The translations under genes and the position numbers were made by a program. Of a stretch of 55,151 nucleotides of DNA, positions 2,472 to 55,028 are shown piece by piece (within the stretch, counting starts at the first letter, position 1; each line of letters starts with the position of its first letter). The notes below the pieces were generated by a model, which was not told where the DNA came from, did no database searches, and saw only the letters and a program-made list of their open reading frames with translations. Origin of the DNA: Candidatus Nealsonbacteria bacterium (lineage in GTDB: Bacteria > Planctomycetota > Planctomycetia > Pirellulales > Thermoguttaceae); the NCBI GenBank assembly GCA_013202865.1, contig JABMRB010001404.1, positions 1-55,151 on the forward strand, written 5' to 3'.

Positions 2472-3167
2472 ATGACTAGCGAACGCAACGTAGAAGTTTA
2501 TTGGCACGAACATGCCGTCTCGCGCGATGAGCGGGAACAGTTTTTCGGGCATCGTGGATGCGTCATCTGGTTTACCGGCCTGAGCGGCTCCGGCAAGAGC
2601 ACGATCGCCAATCTGGTCGACCACAAACTGCACTCGATGGGCGTGCGCAGCTTCGTGCTTGATGGCGACAATGTCCGCCACGGCCACGGCCTGAATGCTG
2701 CACCGGCCGGCCTGAAATCCCGCCATGGCGAGGAGTTCGCCGACCGGTTCGGACTGGGGTTCTCGGCCCAGGACCGCGAGGAGAACATTCGCCGGATCGG
2801 CGCCGTGGCGAGACTCTTCTGCGACGCCGGGCTGATCGCGGTTACGGCGTTCATCAGCCCTTATCGGGCCGACCGGGCAGGGGCTCGAGCGTTGATCCCG
2901 GCGCCCGACTTCGTCGAGATCTTTGTCGATGTCCCCCTGGATGTGTGCGAAGCACGCGACCCCAAGGGACTCTACAAGAAGGCCCGGGCGGGTGAAATCA
3001 AGGGGTTCACCGGTATCGACGCCCCCTACGAACAGCCGGAAAACCCGGAACTGGTGCTCGACGCCGACGCGAAATCGGCCGAGATGCTGGCCGACGAGGT
3101 GATCGCGTACCTGCGGGCGACCGACAAGATCGCCATGGGGTCCGAATCGGCGGTTGGTGCCACGTAG
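2472..3167 (+). CDS. cysC: adenylylsulfate (APS) kinase
   Basis: P-loop FTGLSGSGKST, LDGDNVRHG, ENIRR, AFISPYRADR, CEARDPKGLYKKARAGEIKGFTGIDAPYEQP. ATG at 2472 is chosen over the upstream ORF start at 2409. There is a ~19-aa insertion after DGDNVRHG relative to E. coli CysC as I remember it. Confidence 0.93.
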   Translation: MTSERNVEVYWHEHAVSRDEREQFFGHRGCVIWFTGLSGSGKSTIANLVDHKLHSMGVRSFVLDGDNVRHGHGLNAAPAGLKSRHGEEFADRFGLGFSAQDREENIRRIGAVARLFCDAGLIAVTAFISPYRADRAGARALIPAPDFVEIFVDVPLDVCEARDPKGLYKKARAGEIKGFTGIDAPYEQPENPELVLDADAKSAEMLADEVIAYLRATDKIAMGSESAVGAT

Positions 3168-3384
3168 GAATCGAGTTCGAAAACGACCAGTTGGGGCAGA
3201 GTGAGTTCGACTGCGCTACCGGTCTACCGCTGGATCTACCGATCAAAACCCCTCTAACGGGCCGTTTCGCGAAAATTTCTTCGGCGGCTTGCGACAAATG
3301 GCGGTTCGGCGGCCAATAGGTTTCCAGAGAGGCGGTTCTCTCTCGGAAAACATCAGAGACGGTATTCATTCAAAGGGAAAGATC

Positions 3385-3552
3385 ATGAAACGCTGGATTC
3401 TCGGATTGGCTGCATTGATGGTACTGGTAAATGCTGGACAGGTTCAGGCGAGTGCAGGAAATGACGTTGTGCCCGAACCGTCGACCGTCGTCATTTGGTC
3501 GGTGCTGGCAGCCCTCGGCGTGGCTTACACTTGGTGCCGGCGGAAACGCTGA
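3385..3552 (+). CDS. minimal PEP-CTERM sorting-domain protein (55 aa)
   Basis: Signal peptide MKRWILGLAALMVLVNAGQVQA is followed after 7 residues (SAGNDVV) by PEPST, a hydrophobic helix VVIWSVLAALGVAYTW and a basic tail CRRKR. A purine-rich AAAGGGAAAG lies upstream of ATG 3385. Confidence 0.8.
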   Translation: MKRWILGLAALMVLVNAGQVQASAGNDVVPEPSTVVIWSVLAALGVAYTWCRRKR

Positions 3553-3806
3553 ACTGTAGCGAGCACAGACCTCCATACGCGGATCCTGCCGAAAAATCGA
3601 CGAACGTCGTGTGGCCCGGGTTCTGGCTGTCGCTGCCCGTGTTGCACTCGAAGGCACGCTGCGAACGGCTTGCATGCGAGCCTCCAATTCATAGCCCCTG
3701 CCGATGCATGACCGAGTTGATCGCAAATACGTATCCACGGATGGCAAGATGGCGTGGATGCGCGGTATACGCAAGTCAATCCCCCCCAGAAAGTCGAGGG
3801 TGCTAG

Positions 3807-53418: not shown

Positions 53419-53463
53419 TCGGGACCTTCGGTACGGCACAGAACGTCGTTACGACCAGCCCAC

Positions 53464-53889
53464 GTGCGTAAATTCACCGACATCACGTTACGCGTCCTCT
53501 GCCTCAGCTACCTGGTCGCCCTGAGCCTGCTGTTGCTGAGTGAGGAGCCGCTGCGCTTCTTCGGGGTGGACTCTCCGTTGCGCGATTTGGCCCCACGAGC
53601 GCACTTCCCGAGCTTCCTGGTGCTGACGATACTGGCCTTGGCAGCCAGATGGACCATGCCGCAGTGGGCCGTGATCTCGTGCCTTGTTACGTACGCGGGA
53701 GCCACCGAATTCTTGCAGGCGTTTGTGCCTGGGAGGAGCCCCAGTATTGTGGACGGTCTCCACAACCTTGCCGGGATCGCAGTCGGATGCACCGTCTGTT
53801 GGATCGTTGTGGGTGTCGGCATCCTAGTGTCGCGCGGATTCAACCGGCGCGGGGTAGTGCTAGTCAACGGAGAGAACACTTCACAATGA
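53464..53889 (+). CDS. VanZ-like family membrane protein
   Basis: Four hydrophobic segments, with ATEFLQAFVPGRSPSIVDGLHNLAGIAVG. GTG start. Confidence 0.65.
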   Translation: MRKFTDITLRVLCLSYLVALSLLLLSEEPLRFFGVDSPLRDLAPRAHFPSFLVLTILALAARWTMPQWAVISCLVTYAGATEFLQAFVPGRSPSIVDGLHNLAGIAVGCTVCWIVVGVGILVSRGFNRRGVVLVNGENTSQ

Positions 53890-55028
53890 CAGACTTACAC
53901 CTAGCTTGCGTCGTCGGCGCCCGGCCGAACTTCATGAAAATGGCGCCCCTGCTGCGGGCGTTGGAAGCCTATTCTCACGTACATCCCATATTGATCCACA
54001 CGGGGCAGCACTACGACGAGAACCTCTCCGACATCTTCTTTGATGAACTGGGGATGAAGCGGCCGGACGTGTCTCTCGACGTGGGCTCCGGCAAACACGG
54101 GGTGCAAACGGCAAAGGTCCTGAAACGGTTTGAGGCGCTCCTGGAACAGGGGACACCCGGGGAGGGAAATCGCTACGATCGCGTGGTCGTCGTGGGCGAC
54201 GTCAACTCGACGATGGCCGCCACGTTGGCAGCGGTCAAGCTGGGTGTGCCGGTTGCCCACGTCGAAGCCGGACTGCGCAGCTTCGACCGTTCCATGCCCG
54301 AGGAAATCAACCGCATGGTCACCGATTCGATCTGCGACATGCTGCTGGTCTCCGAGCCGGCCGGTCTGGAGAATCTTCGCCGTGAAGGGCATCCCGACGA
54401 TCGATTGCACCTGGTCGGTAACGTGATGATCGACACGCTGAGACGACTGTTGCCGAAGGCCAAGGCACGCGATACGCTCAACGACTACGACCTGAATCCC
54501 GGCCGATACGGAGTGATCACGCTGCACCGCCCGGCCAACGTCGATGCACCCGAGACACTGGCCCGGTTGTTGGACGTGCTGGTGGAGGTCTCACGCGAGC
54601 TTCGCTTGGTGTTTCCACTCCACCCGAGAACGAAACAACGAATCGAGCGGTTCGGATTGGCCGAACGGCTTGATGCTGCCAAGGGAATCTTGCAGTTGGG
54701 CCCCCTGGGCTACCTCGATTTCCTCGCGCTGACGTCACAAGCAAAGGTCATTATTACCGATTCCGGAGGTCTTCAAGAAGAATCGACGGCGCTGGGGATT
54801 CCTTGCCTAACTGCGCGACCCAACACGGAGCGCCCCATTACAGTAACCGAAGGCACAAGCACACTGGTAGACGGTGACCCGACGAAACTACGGCACAACC
54901 TGCGGGCCGTGCTCGACGGAACATACAAGCAAGGCCGTTGCCCAGCACTCTGGGACGGTCGGGCGGCCGAACGCATCGCACCGCTGCTGGCCGGCGTTGC
55001 CGGGCAAGAGCAGATAACGACGGGCTGA
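53886..55028 (+). CDS. wecB: UDP-N-acetylglucosamine 2-epimerase (non-hydrolysing)
   Basis: VVGARPNFMKMAPL, HTGQHYD, GDVNSTMA, HVEAGLRSFDRSMPEEINR, TDSGGLQEE. ATGA overlap with the VanZ-like gene. Confidence 0.92.
   Translation: MTDLHLACVVGARPNFMKMAPLLRALEAYSHVHPILIHTGQHYDENLSDIFFDELGMKRPDVSLDVGSGKHGVQTAKVLKRFEALLEQGTPGEGNRYDRVVVVGDVNSTMAATLAAVKLGVPVAHVEAGLRSFDRSMPEEINRMVTDSICDMLLVSEPAGLENLRREGHPDDRLHLVGNVMIDTLRRLLPKAKARDTLNDYDLNPGRYGVITLHRPANVDAPETLARLLDVLVEVSRELRLVFPLHPRTKQRIERFGLAERLDAAKGILQLGPLGYLDFLALTSQAKVIITDSGGLQEESTALGIPCLTARPNTERPITVTEGTSTLVDGDPTKLRHNLRAVLDGTYKQGRCPALWDGRAAERIAPLLAGVAGQEQITTG

Follow-up and report, generated by a model that had tools for sequence, protein, structure and literature searches.

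The window (the whole 55,151-nt stretch of DNA that was analyzed) carries a one-strand cluster of roughly 52 kb, a cell-surface polysaccharide biosynthesis locus from an uncultured Planctomycetota (Pirellulales-like) bacterium. A total of 45 open reading frames (ORFs) between positions 2472 and 55028 had Pfam or NCBIfam support, and every one lies on the forward strand, as a first-pass annotation of this DNA had claimed; the ten longest reverse-strand ORFs had no Pfam match at E ≤ 0.01. The six junctions listed in that annotation overlap by 4 to 8 nt each: wzt/ST1 (15149/15155, 7 nt), DegT1/GT2 (19533/19536, 4 nt), GT1/nitroreductase (21964/21971, 8 nt), nitroreductase/pyruvyltransferase (23106/23109, 4 nt), GT1/GT2 (28706/28713, 8 nt), and VanZ-like/wecB (53886/53889, 4 nt). 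Intergenic gaps of 208 to 708 nt also occur. The window stops at the contig end, 123 nt past wecB, so genes absent from it may simply be located off the contig.

The first gene, cysC (2472 to 3167), encodes an adenylyl-sulfate (APS) kinase with the P-loop GLSGSGKST (PF01583 [APS_kinase], 215.8 bits; NCBIfam NF003013, 272 bits versus a cutoff of 163). The kinase had been described as opening the cluster, and its identity held, but its role as a dedicated PAPS gene did not: among the 80 closest cysC loci (71 to 90% amino acid identity), not one has other cluster genes within 10 kb, and the nearest relative shares the cysC coding sequence and nothing else. Since adjacency to cluster genes is not conserved, CysC is the PAPS source but probably a housekeeping neighbor rather than a dedicated member of the cluster.

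A head module follows. A mini PEP-CTERM ORF of 55 amino acids (3385 to 3552) encodes a signal peptide with VPEPS immediately behind it, a transmembrane (TM) helix, and RRKR. It had no HMM match; its tail resembles those of 250-amino-acid PEP-CTERM proteins adjoining exosortases in three relatives' loci (L073, L079, and L085); the PEP-CTERM protein reported earlier is thus backed by tail likeness but not by a model match, and is minimal in size. The NusG paralog at 4047 to 4787 (UpxY/RfaH-like; PF02357, 34.1 bits, passing; UpxY model NF033644, 80 bits, under the cutoff of 100) is a candidate operon-specific antiterminator. Two LuxR-type response regulators, at 4901 to 5689 (Response_reg plus GerE) and 8096 to 8851 (43% identity to the first), flank a WecA/MraY-family polyprenyl-phosphate HexNAc-1-P transferase (6398 to 7969; PF00953, 128 bits; TIGR02380, 141 bits, under the equivalog cutoff), the only initiating transferase in the window. 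The exosortase (8769 to 9815; PF09721, 177 bits; TIGR02602, 147 bits versus a cutoff of 105.6) has the Cys, Arg, and His that are invariant in the family alignment but is of unclassified subtype, scoring under the cutoffs of the XrtA, XrtB, XrtD, and XrtW models; the database gene call for it is 308 amino acids, starting near 8889. Next are a polysaccharide co-polymerase (PCP) with a BY-kinase domain (9888 to 12101; Wzz N terminus, Walker A, and C-terminal YYDY tail; TIGR01007, 108.1 bits versus a cutoff of 108.05) and the exosortase-associated protein EpsI (12171 to 12812; PF11984, 80.5 bits; TIGR02914, 55.2 bits versus a cutoff of 42.8). The exosortase and EpsI, both named previously, therefore exceed their family-model cutoffs. 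Relatives of the exosortase are almost all from Planctomycetota, which places the contig in that phylum (Pirellulales-like). Around these relatives (86 loci), homologs of the PCP kinase were found in 63 loci, EpsI in 50, the WecA-like enzyme in 33, the NusG-like protein in 13, and Wzm/Wzt in 12. Planctomycetes thus repeatedly carry a head module that combines an exosortase with a PCP kinase, a WecA-like primer, EpsI, and sometimes Wzm/Wzt. The previous proposal that glycan assembly is coupled to exosortase sorting overstated the case, its basis being this conserved gene neighborhood and nothing further.

No flippase had been recognized previously, but a Wzm/Wzt ABC exporter at 12865 to 15155 had been overlooked. 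The ABC-2 permease gene wzm (12865 to 13769) is frameshifted in the window, one nucleotide being missing from a C run near 13518 to 13521; it is intact (301 amino acids) in an independent contig, and the intact form scored 77.6 bits. The ATPase gene wzt (13812 to 15155; ABC_tran, 84 bits; Wzt/TagH-like in NCBIfam) encodes a C-terminal Wzt_C-like domain (26.6 bits, under the Pfam cutoff of 30.4). A relic of the wzt 3′ end, covering the last ~85 codons of this domain, lies at 16081 to 16333 inside ORF 15808 to 16377 and aligns gap-free to 14871 to 15123 (77% nucleotide and 69% amino acid identity). A sulfotransferase gene directly after wzt, as here, was found in only two of 80 species genomes (L028 and L055). 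Family and query searches upheld the reported absence of Wzx, OPX/Wza, and ATP sulfurylase from the window, where CysQ was likewise not found; searches with the Wzx proteins of four relatives also found no Wzx in the 55 kb.

Four sulfotransferases (ST1 to ST4) each exceeded Pfam sulfotransferase cutoffs: ST1 (15149 to 15904; Sulfotransfer_4, 101.8 bits, cutoff 22.8), ST2 (17372 to 18220; Sulfotransfer_3, 44.9 to 45.9 bits, cutoff 27; Sulfotransfer_1, 35.9 bits, cutoff 22), ST3 (25595 to 26443; Sulfotransfer_3, 38.1 bits, cutoff 27), and ST4 (31420 to 32298; Sulfotransfer_1, 49.9 bits, cutoff 22). The motifs previously read as PAPS binding (NKTGTTS, ARSGTSW, ARSGST, KAGTTSL, and REPVARAIS) were all found in these sequences, and the four are indeed mutually unrelated insofar as none detected another by BLASTP. 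A crude hydropathy scan predicted no TM segments in any of them. ST1 matched PDB 9kf1 (1e-6), and its solved relatives include small-molecule sulfotransferases; its family numbers 1866 proteins, and the genes adjoin a polysaccharide exporter gene in all six contexts (6/6), across five phyla. ST2 aligns with the ST3 family at the PSB loop (hhalign). Support for the identification of ST2 comes solely from Pfam, and an alternative start at 17186 is possible for its ORF. With the AF2 model of ST3 (pLDDT 83), the top 38 Foldseek matches in PDB were all PAPS sulfotransferases, with similar scores for tyrosylprotein sulfotransferases and for Stf0, the trehalose sulfotransferase of sulfolipid synthesis. 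The ST3 ortholog in a syntenic relative's locus, L088, has 67 to 71% identity, and ST3 sits within a glycosyltransferase (GT)-ST-GT block syntenic with a relative at 50 to 67% amino acid identity. ST4 matched PDB 3RNL (5e-14) and is similar to the human heparan-sulfate 3-O-sulfotransferases 3-OST-5, 3-OST-3A1, and 3-OST-1 (1.5e-9 to 1e-6). The ST genes are packed tightly among GT genes, with gaps of 1 to 22 nt or overlaps; their GC3 is lower than that of core genes, which suggests acquisition. Together, these data support four genuine PAPS-type sulfotransferases, encoded in the midst of glycosyltransferase genes.

The remaining genes encode glycosyltransferases, sugar-nucleotide enzymes, and decorating enzymes. 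After WbqC-like protein 1 (16393 to 17163; PF08889, 228 bits) and a DegT/DesI-like sugar aminotransferase (18262 to 19536; PF01041, 370 bits; TIGR04427, 552 bits, under the cutoff of 650), Pfam identified a GT2 (19533 to 20432), a GT1/GT4-family transferase (20541 to 21971), a nitroreductase-family protein (21964 to 23109), and a polysaccharide pyruvyltransferase (23106 to 24242); in L012 the last two follow wzt as a pair (62% and 54% identity). A GT4-family enzyme, GT1_b (24265 to 25572; start codon uncertain), has 58% identity to its L088 ortholog. Synteny with L088 extends through GT2_b (26445 to 27425), GT1_c (27403 to 28713), GT2_c (28706 to 29656), a GT-gene relic that is also present there (29660 to 30007), and GT1_d (30074 to 31282). 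The Wzy_C-family membrane protein (32376 to 33767; PF04932, 56.4 bits versus a cutoff of 31.7) has about nine TM segments and 44% identity to an L088 ortholog that is Wzx linked; it is a candidate polymerase or O-antigen ligase. Pfam further identified GT1_e (33883 to 35082), GT2_d (35121 to 36005), and SAM methyltransferase 1 (36220 to 36942). A dTDP-6-deoxy-sugar branch (37361 to 40568) comprises an RmlC/FdtA-like cupin, RmlB, RmlA, and SAM methyltransferase 2. It is followed at 40570 to 45039 by an ADH_zinc_N-GFO/IDH/MocA fusion oxidoreductase (43% identity in L002 and L006), WbqC-like protein 2, and a dTDP-4-amino-4,6-dideoxygalactose transaminase (NF008687, 581 bits versus a cutoff of 375). 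A GtrB/ArnC-like GT2 whose C terminus carries two TM helices (45088 to 46116) and a GT-C/PMT-like membrane transferase (46633 to 48201; weak PMT match, Pfam E = 0.004, NCBIfam 30 bits versus a cutoff of 800) form a candidate periplasmic glycosylation pair. GT1_f, a sugar N-formyltransferase-like protein, and a polysaccharide deacetylase with DUF3473 (Pfam; 48447 to 51416) come next, the deacetylase scoring 244 bits against the XrtA-system model TIGR03006 (under the cutoff of 276). The heparinase II/III-like protein (51511 to 53418) has no signal peptide and is probably cytoplasmic; in L002 and L006, its gene is paired with that of the fusion oxidoreductase. A VanZ-like membrane protein (53464 to 53889; Pfam/NCBIfam) and the UDP-GlcNAc 2-epimerase WecB (53886 to 55028; TIGR00236, 290 bits versus a cutoff of 210) complete the locus. 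Family searches thus recovered the pyruvyltransferase and two methyltransferases noted previously, and the earlier count of about 12 GTs is matched by 11 Leloir enzymes plus the WecA-like primer and the GT-C protein. The PCP tyrosine kinase, Wzy_C-family protein, GtrB-like/GT-C pair, and NusG/UpxY-like antiterminator had been assigned no role in the first-pass annotation.

Sulfotransferases among glycosyltransferases, together with pyruvyl-, methyl-, and formyltransferases and amino-sugar genes, make a sulfated, decorated glycan the natural prediction. Assignment as a sulfated-glycan locus is well supported, and its most likely output is one or two surface sugar polymers carrying sulfate, methyl, and pyruvyl groups; as a whole, synthesis of sulfated glycan(s) is the best explanation and one we consider probable, with sulfation, acceptor sugars, and product number as predictions. 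In this model, the WecA-like enzyme would prime undecaprenyl phosphate with HexNAc-1-phosphate and eleven cytoplasmic GT2/GT4 enzymes would lengthen the chain. dTDP-6-deoxy-amino sugar precursors would come from RmlA/B, the ketoisomerase-like cupin, two DegT transaminases, the formyltransferase, and the WbqC-like proteins, and ManNAc-type precursors from WecB. The four cytoplasmic PAPS-dependent sulfotransferases, from four different subfamilies, may sulfate distinct positions before the glycan leaves the cytoplasmic face, PAPS occurring in that compartment only; the two methyltransferases and the pyruvyltransferase would attach further groups. Wzm/Wzt would export the lipid-linked polymer, and the GtrB-like/GT-C pair possibly adds a periplasmic branch. 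The Wzy_C-family protein might ligate the polymer to an acceptor or polymerize a second, Wzx-dependent unit whose flippase is off the contig. Exosortase and EpsI would process PEP-CTERM proteins bound for the same surface layer, and the antiterminator and two LuxR regulators may regulate read-through along this lengthy one-strand gene array.

The gene set for sulfate, pyruvate, and methyl groups agrees with the heavily decorated heteroglycan proposed earlier, but a single product is not supported, since the ABC-exporter route is mixed with a block that goes with Wzx/Wzy in L088. The central block is syntenic with L088 (44 to 67% amino acid identity), whose copy lies together with EpsI and a Wzx flippase. 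L003/L007 and L088 are independent examples of ST-bearing loci with an exosortase or EpsI link, and ST-bearing polysaccharide loci were found in five phyla. The locus has a mosaic structure, its blocks being Wzx/Wzy linked in relatives, and the variable part is of mosaic origin. A BY-kinase PCP and a Wzy_C protein typify Wzx/Wzy rather than ABC pathways, which makes the pathway assignment ambiguous, and the co-occurrence of Wzm/Wzt with a Wzx/Wzy-linked block keeps two glycans or an O-antigen as live options.

It is possible, although we hold this tentatively, that the locus makes two products: an ABC-exported polymer specified by the head plus the first of the variable blocks (WecA-like enzyme, Wzm/Wzt, ST1, ST2, and pyruvyltransferase) and a Wzy-polymerized unit from the central block (GT1_b, ST3, GT2_b, GT1_c, GT1_d, ST4, Wzy_C, and GT1_e), with a Wzx flippase and OPX channel past the contig end. 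Beyond the L088 synteny, the Wzy-type parts, and the truncation at the contig end, this is consistent with ST1-family relatives that adjoin Wzx in L002 and L003 and with gaps long enough for several transcription units. However, relatives' Wzx queries found no counterpart in the window, a single transferase initiates synthesis, and all genes share one strand and one NusG-like antiterminator. WecA, Wzm, Wzt, and O-antigen ligase are the defining gene set of ABC-dependent O-antigen synthesis in Enterobacteria. A sulfated lipopolysaccharide O-antigen made by this classical route, rather than a free exopolysaccharide, is a somewhat unlikely alternative: WecA would prime, Wzm/Wzt would export, and the Wzy_C-family protein would be a WaaL-type ligase to lipid A-core. 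Members of all four families, including a Wzt with a C-terminal domain, are encoded in the window, but the Wzx accompanying the Wzy_C ortholog in L088 favors a polymerase, and a BY-kinase PCP with an exosortase/EpsI module is typical of exopolysaccharide or capsule loci (PMC1569441). A non-glycan substrate for at least one of the sulfotransferases (such as a lipid, a small molecule, or tyrosine residues in a secreted or PEP-CTERM protein), with incidental placement in the locus, is improbable, since the structural matches of ST3, the solved relatives of ST1, and the low GC3 would fit but the tight packing, the conserved GT-ST-GT synteny, the exporter neighbors of the ST1 family, and the glycosaminoglycan sulfotransferases closest to ST4 argue against it.

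Sulfated glycan synthesis by this locus, the reading we prefer, can be compared with known systems. In work from the Whitfield laboratory, Escherichia coli O8/O9a reportedly has the order wzm-wzt-wbdD, with a modifying enzyme directly after wzt, and the extra C-terminal domain of O9a Wzt is said to read the chain-terminating cap. The order here is alike, but a sulfotransferase rather than a kinase/methyltransferase follows wzt, and the Wzt_C match is subthreshold. Such loci are less rare than was first suggested: sulfated capsules of verified structure have been published whose clusters contain PAPS genes, sulfotransferases, and ABC exporters (PMC11641403, PMC11766843). Compared by published description rather than by sequence, the cluster of Vibrio sp. 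KMM 8419, whose capsule is sulfated by NMR, is like this locus a large polysaccharide cluster, joining wecA and dTDP-sugar genes of the rhamnose type to many GTs, sulfotransferases (three there), a cysC within the cluster, and an ABC exporter; its authors regard the joint presence of PAPS and ST genes in such a cluster as a hallmark of sulfated polysaccharide synthesis (PMC11641403). This gammaproteobacterium differs in having second cysN/cysD copies besides cysC, and KpsMTED (a group 2/3 capsule ABC system) instead of Wzm/Wzt, and in lacking the exosortase/EpsI/PEP-CTERM module and BY-kinase PCP found at the head here. Cobetia marina KMM 1449, which makes a sulfated capsule with Rha2S, likewise combines ABC export, a sulfotransferase, a pyruvyltransferase, rml genes, and PAPS-supply genes but, unlike this locus, holds the complete PAPS set (cysNC, cysD, cysQ, and sulfate permease) within the cluster, has a single ST region, exports through a Kps-type system with Kdo-lipid priming, and lacks an exosortase (PMC11766843). 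The synechan xss cluster of Synechocystis PCC 6803, genetically proven to make a sulfated exopolysaccharide, resembles this locus in its GTs (eight), PCP, and sulfotransferases of different subfamilies, whose number (two, versus four here) matched the sulfate stoichiometry; in contrast, it is plasmid borne, XssS/R/Q regulated, and Wzx/Wzy dependent and has no PAPS gene or exosortase (PMC8205485). Pontiella sulfatireligans F21, a PVC superphylum member with a measured sulfated exopolymer, has a putatively glycosaminoglycan-like cluster, its link to the product also putative, with GT2/GT4 enzymes, a methyltransferase, one sulfotransferase, and an amino-dideoxy-sugar (dTDP-4-amino-4,6-dideoxyglucose) transaminase; an exosortase or ABC exporter, both present here, is not described for it (PMC7356697). 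PEP-CTERM/EpsH loci, of which planctomycetes (Rhodopirellula baltica) were already named as carriers, share an exosortase and EpsI inside an exopolysaccharide locus, a tyrosine-kinase PCP, a sugar transferase, and a PEP-CTERM-locus-type deacetylase with this one, whose subtype-subthreshold exosortase, Wzm/Wzt, and four sulfotransferases set it apart, the latter two being unmentioned there (Haft et al. 2006, PMC1569441). The same cluster logic is already known from publications on marine Vibrio and Cobetia and on cyanobacteria.

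Scans of about 50 plus-strand ORFs against Pfam and NCBIfam, together with the ORF listing itself, showed positions 2472 to 55028 to be an unbroken plus-strand gene array, as proposed in the first-pass annotation, whose listed gene overlaps are also real. The ten longest minus-strand ORFs had no Pfam match, and these shadow ORFs were rejected as genes. tRNA and Rfam scans (gathering thresholds) of the whole window returned nothing, and promoter and terminator scans of positions 1 to 9000 gave no excess over shuffled expectation. Upstream of the array, positions 1 to 2400 showed no Pfam or NCBIfam match among the ORFs tested (627 to 1016 and 1109 to 1729) and resembled neither the loci of relatives nor the sequence that precedes the closest cysC homologue. 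The head of the array comprises, in order, cysC (2472 to 3167), a 55-amino-acid PEP-CTERM-like ORF (3385 to 3552), a NusG/UpxY-like protein, a LuxR response regulator, a WecA-like primer, a second LuxR response regulator, an exosortase (8769 to 9815), a PCP tyrosine kinase, EpsI (12171 to 12812), wzm (12865 to 13769), and wzt (13812 to 15155). The variable region that follows starts with the first of four sulfotransferase (ST) genes, ST1 (15149 to 15904), a relic of the wzt 3′ end, and WbqC-like gene 1, and continues through ST2 (17372 to 18220), degT1, a GT2, a GT4-family enzyme, a nitroreductase-family protein, a pyruvyltransferase, a GT4-family enzyme, ST3 (25595 to 26443), a GT2, a GT4-family enzyme, a GT2, a GT relic, a GT4-family enzyme, ST4 (31420 to 32298), a Wzy_C protein, a GT4-family enzyme, and a GT2. 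Downstream lie methyltransferase 1, an FdtA/RmlC-like cupin, RmlB, RmlA, methyltransferase 2, an ADH-GFO fusion oxidoreductase, WbqC-like gene 2, a dTDP-Fuc4N transaminase, a GtrB-like GT2, a GT-C, a GT4-family enzyme, a formyltransferase, a deacetylase with DUF3473, a heparinase II/III-like protein, a VanZ-like protein, and WecB.

All four ST ORFs exceeded Pfam sulfotransferase gathering scores: ST1 for PF17784 (101.8 bits; cut-off, 22.8), ST2 for PF13469 (44.9 bits; cut-off, 27) and PF00685 (35.9 bits; cut-off, 22), ST3 for PF13469 (38.1 bits; cut-off, 27), and ST4 for PF00685 (49.9 bits; cut-off, 22). The PAPS-binding-type motifs noticed earlier were sought as a 5′-phosphosulfate-binding loop (K/R-x-G-T/S-T/S after the first strand) and a 3′-phosphate-binding R...S motif, and both could be read from the sequence of all four: GRNKTGTTS and VRDSAEAWYRS in ST1, MARSGTSW and VRHPCGAINS in ST2, RARSGST and YRGSVVKNFLS in ST3, and MKAGTTS and VREPVARAIS in ST4. 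Within the aligned ST3 family, residues R48 and G50 do not vary. A PAPS-sulfotransferase fold was obtained for ST3, for which a model built on a 6-sequence alignment (pLDDT 83) gave exclusively PAPS sulfotransferases as its best 38 PDB matches (E < 1e-3; TM about 0.5). For two others, the evidence consists of sequence matches to solved sulfotransferases, at about 1e-6 for ST1 and, for ST4, at 5e-14 to the bacterial sulfotransferase 3RNL and down to 1.5e-9 to human heparan-sulfate 3-O-sulfotransferases. The single-sequence model of ST2 was unusable (pLDDT 37), and hhalign of ST2 against the ST3 family aligned the 5′ loop in a weak match (probability 23%). Since BLASTP among ST1 to ST4 gave no mutual detection, they represent four subfamilies; an NCBIfam scan returned no model naming any of them or WbqC-like protein 1. 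A crude hydropathy scan found no hydrophobic segment in any of the four, in keeping with cytoplasmic sulfation, PAPS being available in that compartment. The STs are predicted to act on carbohydrate acceptors with PAPS as the sulfate donor. Their GC3 (0.57 to 0.60) falls below the 0.76 to 0.79 of cysC, wzt, degT1, and rmlA, as is usual for the exchangeable part of a polysaccharide locus.

Directly 3′ of EpsI lies a Wzm/Wzt ABC exporter that the first-pass annotation had overlooked, although it was correct that no Wzx, OPX protein, or ATP sulfurylase is present in the window. The two genes stand side by side (PF01061, 77.6 bits for the intact wzm form; PF00005, 84 bits for wzt), and their position after EpsI is conserved in 12 relatives. 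In the window, the loss of 1 nt from a run of C residues (CCCC to CCC, about 13518 to 13521) splits wzm into two frames, whereas an independent 20-kb JGI contig, otherwise one substitution apart, encodes an intact 301-amino-acid wzm product (ABC2_membrane, 77.6 bits). Possible explanations of the frameshift are an assembly error, variation between strains, and a slippage switch. The carbohydrate-binding domain expected at the Wzt C terminus scored 26.6 bits for PF14524, below the cut-off of 30.4.

A gap-free direct repeat of 253 nt links positions 14871 to 15123 with 16081 to 16333 (77% nucleotide and 69% amino acid identity). The second copy, just downstream of ST1, is a relic of the last ~85 wzt codons, and neither the current nor the relic Wzt C-terminal segment had a detectable homologue in the loci of relatives. 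An older wzt 3′ end lying beyond ST1 suggests joint insertion of ST1 and the current Wzt C-terminal domain, as a single cassette placed in front of that older end. It is conceivable, if improbable, that ST1 is a chain terminator rather than a backbone decorator and would cap the non-reducing end of the polymer exported by Wzm/Wzt with sulfate, a mark that the Wzt C-terminal domain would read as an export signal. Three observations fit such a cap: the overlap of ST1 with the wzt stop codon, the relic with its hint of joint arrival, and the location of STs of three different subfamilies directly 3′ of wzt in the three planctomycete loci that have one there (the window and comparison loci L028 and L055). 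A parallel is found in Escherichia coli O8/O9a, where WbdD, encoded directly after wzt, makes methyl and phosphomethyl caps.

The head of the array was compared with 86 loci, of which 80 were centered on exosortase homologues (up to ±10 kb each) and six were further loci. The contig derives from a JGI metagenome, and its closest exosortase relatives, at best 57 to 63% identical, are almost all from Planctomycetota (Pirellulales, Thermoguttaceae, and Planctomycetaceae); Blastopirellula marina DSM 3645 is among the relatives at 49% identity. Homologues of the PCP kinase were present in 63 of the 86 loci, of EpsI in 50, of the WecA-like primer in 33, of the NusG-like protein in 13, of Wzm/Wzt in 12, and of the LuxR response regulators in 10; the head module is thus a recurrent planctomycete arrangement. 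The exosortase and EpsI calls themselves passed family models (exosortase, 147 bits for TIGR02602 against 105.6 and 177 bits for PF09721; EpsI, 55.2 bits for TIGR02914 against 42.8), and Cys, Arg, and His are invariant in the exosortase across 18 relatives. Membership in XrtA (TIGR03109, 131.7 against 208 bits) or XrtD (180 against 400) was ruled out, and scores for XrtW (146 against 425) and XrtB (97 against 275) were likewise below cut-off, as was that of the deacetylase for the XrtA-system model TIGR03006 (244 bits; cut-off, 276). For the coupling of glycan assembly to exosortase sorting, as advanced earlier, the support is this recurring neighborhood.

The ORF at 3385 to 3552 shows VPEPS, a transmembrane helix, and RRKR by eye and had no Pfam or NCBIfam match at E ≤ 0.01, while phmmer linked it (E about 2e-4) to PEP-CTERM proteins adjoining exosortases in loci L073 and L079. 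It is either a truncated remnant of the ~250-amino-acid PEP-CTERM proteins found beside exosortases (L073, L079, and L085) or a minimal exosortase substrate. About seven residues separate its predicted signal-peptide cleavage site (VQA/S) from VPEPS. The PCP-2a BY-kinase, which has a YYDY tail, scored just at the TIGR01007 cut-off (108.1 bits against 108.05). The NusG paralogue is closest to UpxY and RfaH; it passed PF02357 (34.1 bits) and scored below cut-off for KOW (18.8 bits) and NF033644 (80 bits against 100), and no ops-like target site was identified for it. Three perfect-register tandem copies of a 40-nt unit (4709 to 4828; 88 to 90% identity) cover its stop codon and the gap before the first LuxR regulator and are possibly regulator-binding sites. 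Two further tandem repeat units of ~250 nt (5827 to 6078 and 6105 to 6359; 77 to 84% identity) lie in the 708-nt gap 5′ of the wecA-like gene. They had no Rfam match and no copy in any relative's locus compared, and z-scores of −1.05 and −0.36 did not support a structured RNA; they may represent a leader or promoter region in duplicate.

Sulfotransferases are uncommon in loci with this head module. In a jackhmmer panel, 2 of 80 species genomes carried one (L028 and L055), both Pfam-confirmed. Locus ERZ27256790 k141_1801088 encodes two exosortases, a PCP, a WecA-like gene, and EpsI, followed by Wzx and an ST1 homologue, along with one further ST-like gene that has weak Pfam support; in locus L088, EpsI and Wzx precede a Sulfotransfer_1 gene and an ST3 orthologue. 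The synteny comparison showed the window to be a mosaic of blocks, with a recurrent planctomycete head and a variable part that matches separate loci. The block from exosortase through PCP, WecA, EpsI, and Wzm to Wzt matches L028 and L012, the latter also having a nitroreductase and pyruvyltransferase pair after wzt (62% and 54% identity to the window). A Planctomycetota MAG locus, L002, matches the DegT/WbqC/ST1/GT2 group and the ADH-GFO/heparinase-like pair, while the order GT1_b-ST3-GT2_b-GT1_c-(relic)-GT1_d-Wzy_C-GT1_e (glycosyltransferases lettered by position) matches L088 at 44 to 67% identity. The relic here, an ORF at 29660 to 30007, aligns over 75 amino acids (47% identity) with the C-terminal end of a GT4-family gene that is intact in L088 (12516 to 13694); it is a glycosyltransferase gene remnant in the 417-nt gap between GT2_c and GT1_d. 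This relic and that of wzt document shuffling.

Two neighborhoods in the variable region recur elsewhere. ST1 relatives (Sulfotransfer_4 family; 50 to 56% identity) directly adjoin an exporter gene, Wzx or Wzt, in six of six contexts (L002, L003/L004, L171, L172, L173, and the window), which span five phyla, among them Planctomycetota, Neomarinimicrobiota, Chloroflexi, and Bacteroidota; a DegT aminotransferase gene is usually nearby. An ADH_zinc_N-GFO/IDH/MocA fusion (40570 to 42804) co-occurs with the heparinase II/III-like protein (51511 to 53418), ~8.7 kb apart in the window and adjacent in the Planctomycetota polysaccharide loci L002 (16828 to 20708) and L006 (5262 to 9482). The heparinase-like protein of the window has no signal peptide and is probably cytoplasmic and biosynthetic, perhaps with an epimerase-like role, rather than a secreted lyase.

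CysC is an APS kinase by both models (TIGR00455, 255 bits against 138.7; NF003013, 272 bits against 163), with the P-loop GLSGSGKST. It had been described as opening the cluster, but a dedicated role was rejected for lack of linkage: among the 80 closest cysC loci in metagenomes (71 to 90% amino acid identity), none had an ST, an exosortase, or another cluster gene within 10 kb. The recurrent neighbors were instead a glucan-phosphorylase-like gene and small BON-like ORFs, and the closest relative, L091, has only the coding sequence (2471 to 3131) in common with the window. A divergently oriented alpha-glucan-phosphorylase-like gene precedes the cysC homologue in 31 of the 80 loci (L091 to L170), and BON-domain-like small ORFs often lie 3′ of it; this conserved housekeeping neighborhood is absent from the window. 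The gene thus probably belongs to the conserved housekeeping complement and adjoins the locus by chance; CysC can still supply PAPS. In Draconibacterium (L173), an APS kinase and a CysQ-like phosphatase are located inside an ST-bearing Wzx locus.

From the family memberships and conserved neighborhoods, we infer substrates, order of steps, and product as follows, and the function of the locus is a prediction throughout. A WecA-like enzyme would prime synthesis, 11 GTs would assemble the glycan in the cytoplasm, and the four different STs would sulfate it there, alongside methylation and pyruvylation. Wzm/Wzt would then export the polymer, and the GtrB-like GT2, which has two C-terminal transmembrane helices and adjoins the GT-C membrane transferase, would possibly add periplasmic branches with it. 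The Wzy_C-family protein (PF04932, 56.4 bits against 31.7) would perform the final step. The role of the exosortase would be to process PEP-CTERM proteins that go to the same surface layer, and the NusG paralogue would keep transcription going over about 50 kb. Of the original interpretation, sulfated glycan synthesis remains likely; the support does not extend to one sole product, to cysC as a dedicated gene, or to a mechanistic link with exosortase sorting.

It is quite possible, without being the reading we favor, that the locus makes two products and depends on an off-contig Wzx for one of them, the central block (GT1_b to GT1_e with ST3, ST4, and the Wzy_C protein) being Wzx-linked in L088. 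No window ORF matched Polysacc_synt, and tblastn with the Wzx proteins of four relatives gave a best E of 0.23 in the window; OPX, ATP sulfurylase, and CysQ were likewise not found there. Little weight attaches to these absences, since the contig, and with it the window, stops 123 nt past wecB; an exact 48-mer from the contig 3′ end had no match in the metagenome_contigs set. A less likely rival is that the product is a sulfated O-antigen, with the Wzy_C protein acting as ligase. It is unlikely that some of the STs use a non-glycan substrate, in view of the GT-ST-GT synteny and of ST1-family genes adjoining Wzx or Wzt in all six contexts.

Planctomycetes are mainly known for degrading sulfated polysaccharides. 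A planctomycete locus with four different STs beside an exosortase and export core would make them candidate producers of sulfated polymers as well, and the four uncharacterized carbohydrate sulfotransferase subfamilies would offer material for biochemical testing or glyco-engineering. ST-bearing polysaccharide loci were found in at least five phyla in our survey, a spread that lends support to the notion that sulfation of bacterial polysaccharides is under-recognized. Sulfated glycoconjugates have been widely measured in environmental biofilms, microbial mats, and wastewater granules, and their producers and genes are largely unidentified outside cyanobacteria (PMC10483923, PMC9723792, PMC7356697).

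Among known systems, exosortase-linked EPS loci, planctomycetes included, were described in 2006 (PMC1569441), and a putative cluster with one ST was reported in Pontiella (PMC7356697). The genetically proven cyanobacterial case, synechan, involves two STs and a Wzx/Wzy route (PMC8205485). Sulfated capsules with solved structures and sequenced clusters are available for Vibrio sp. KMM 8419, whose cluster has three STs, cysC/N/D, wecA, and a Kps ABC exporter (PMC11641403), and for Cobetia marina KMM 1449 (PMC11766843). Both capsule clusters carry dedicated PAPS genes (PMC11641403, PMC11766843), whereas cysC in the window is a probable housekeeping neighbor and no cysD/N or cysQ was found there. 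The combination of four ST subfamilies, Wzm/Wzt, a BY-kinase PCP, and an unclassified exosortase in Planctomycetota appears to be undescribed in the literature searched, which does not prove its absence. PAPS genes, STs, and an exporter in one cluster have already been published, and what the present locus adds to those systems is breadth and new enzymes rather than a new principle.
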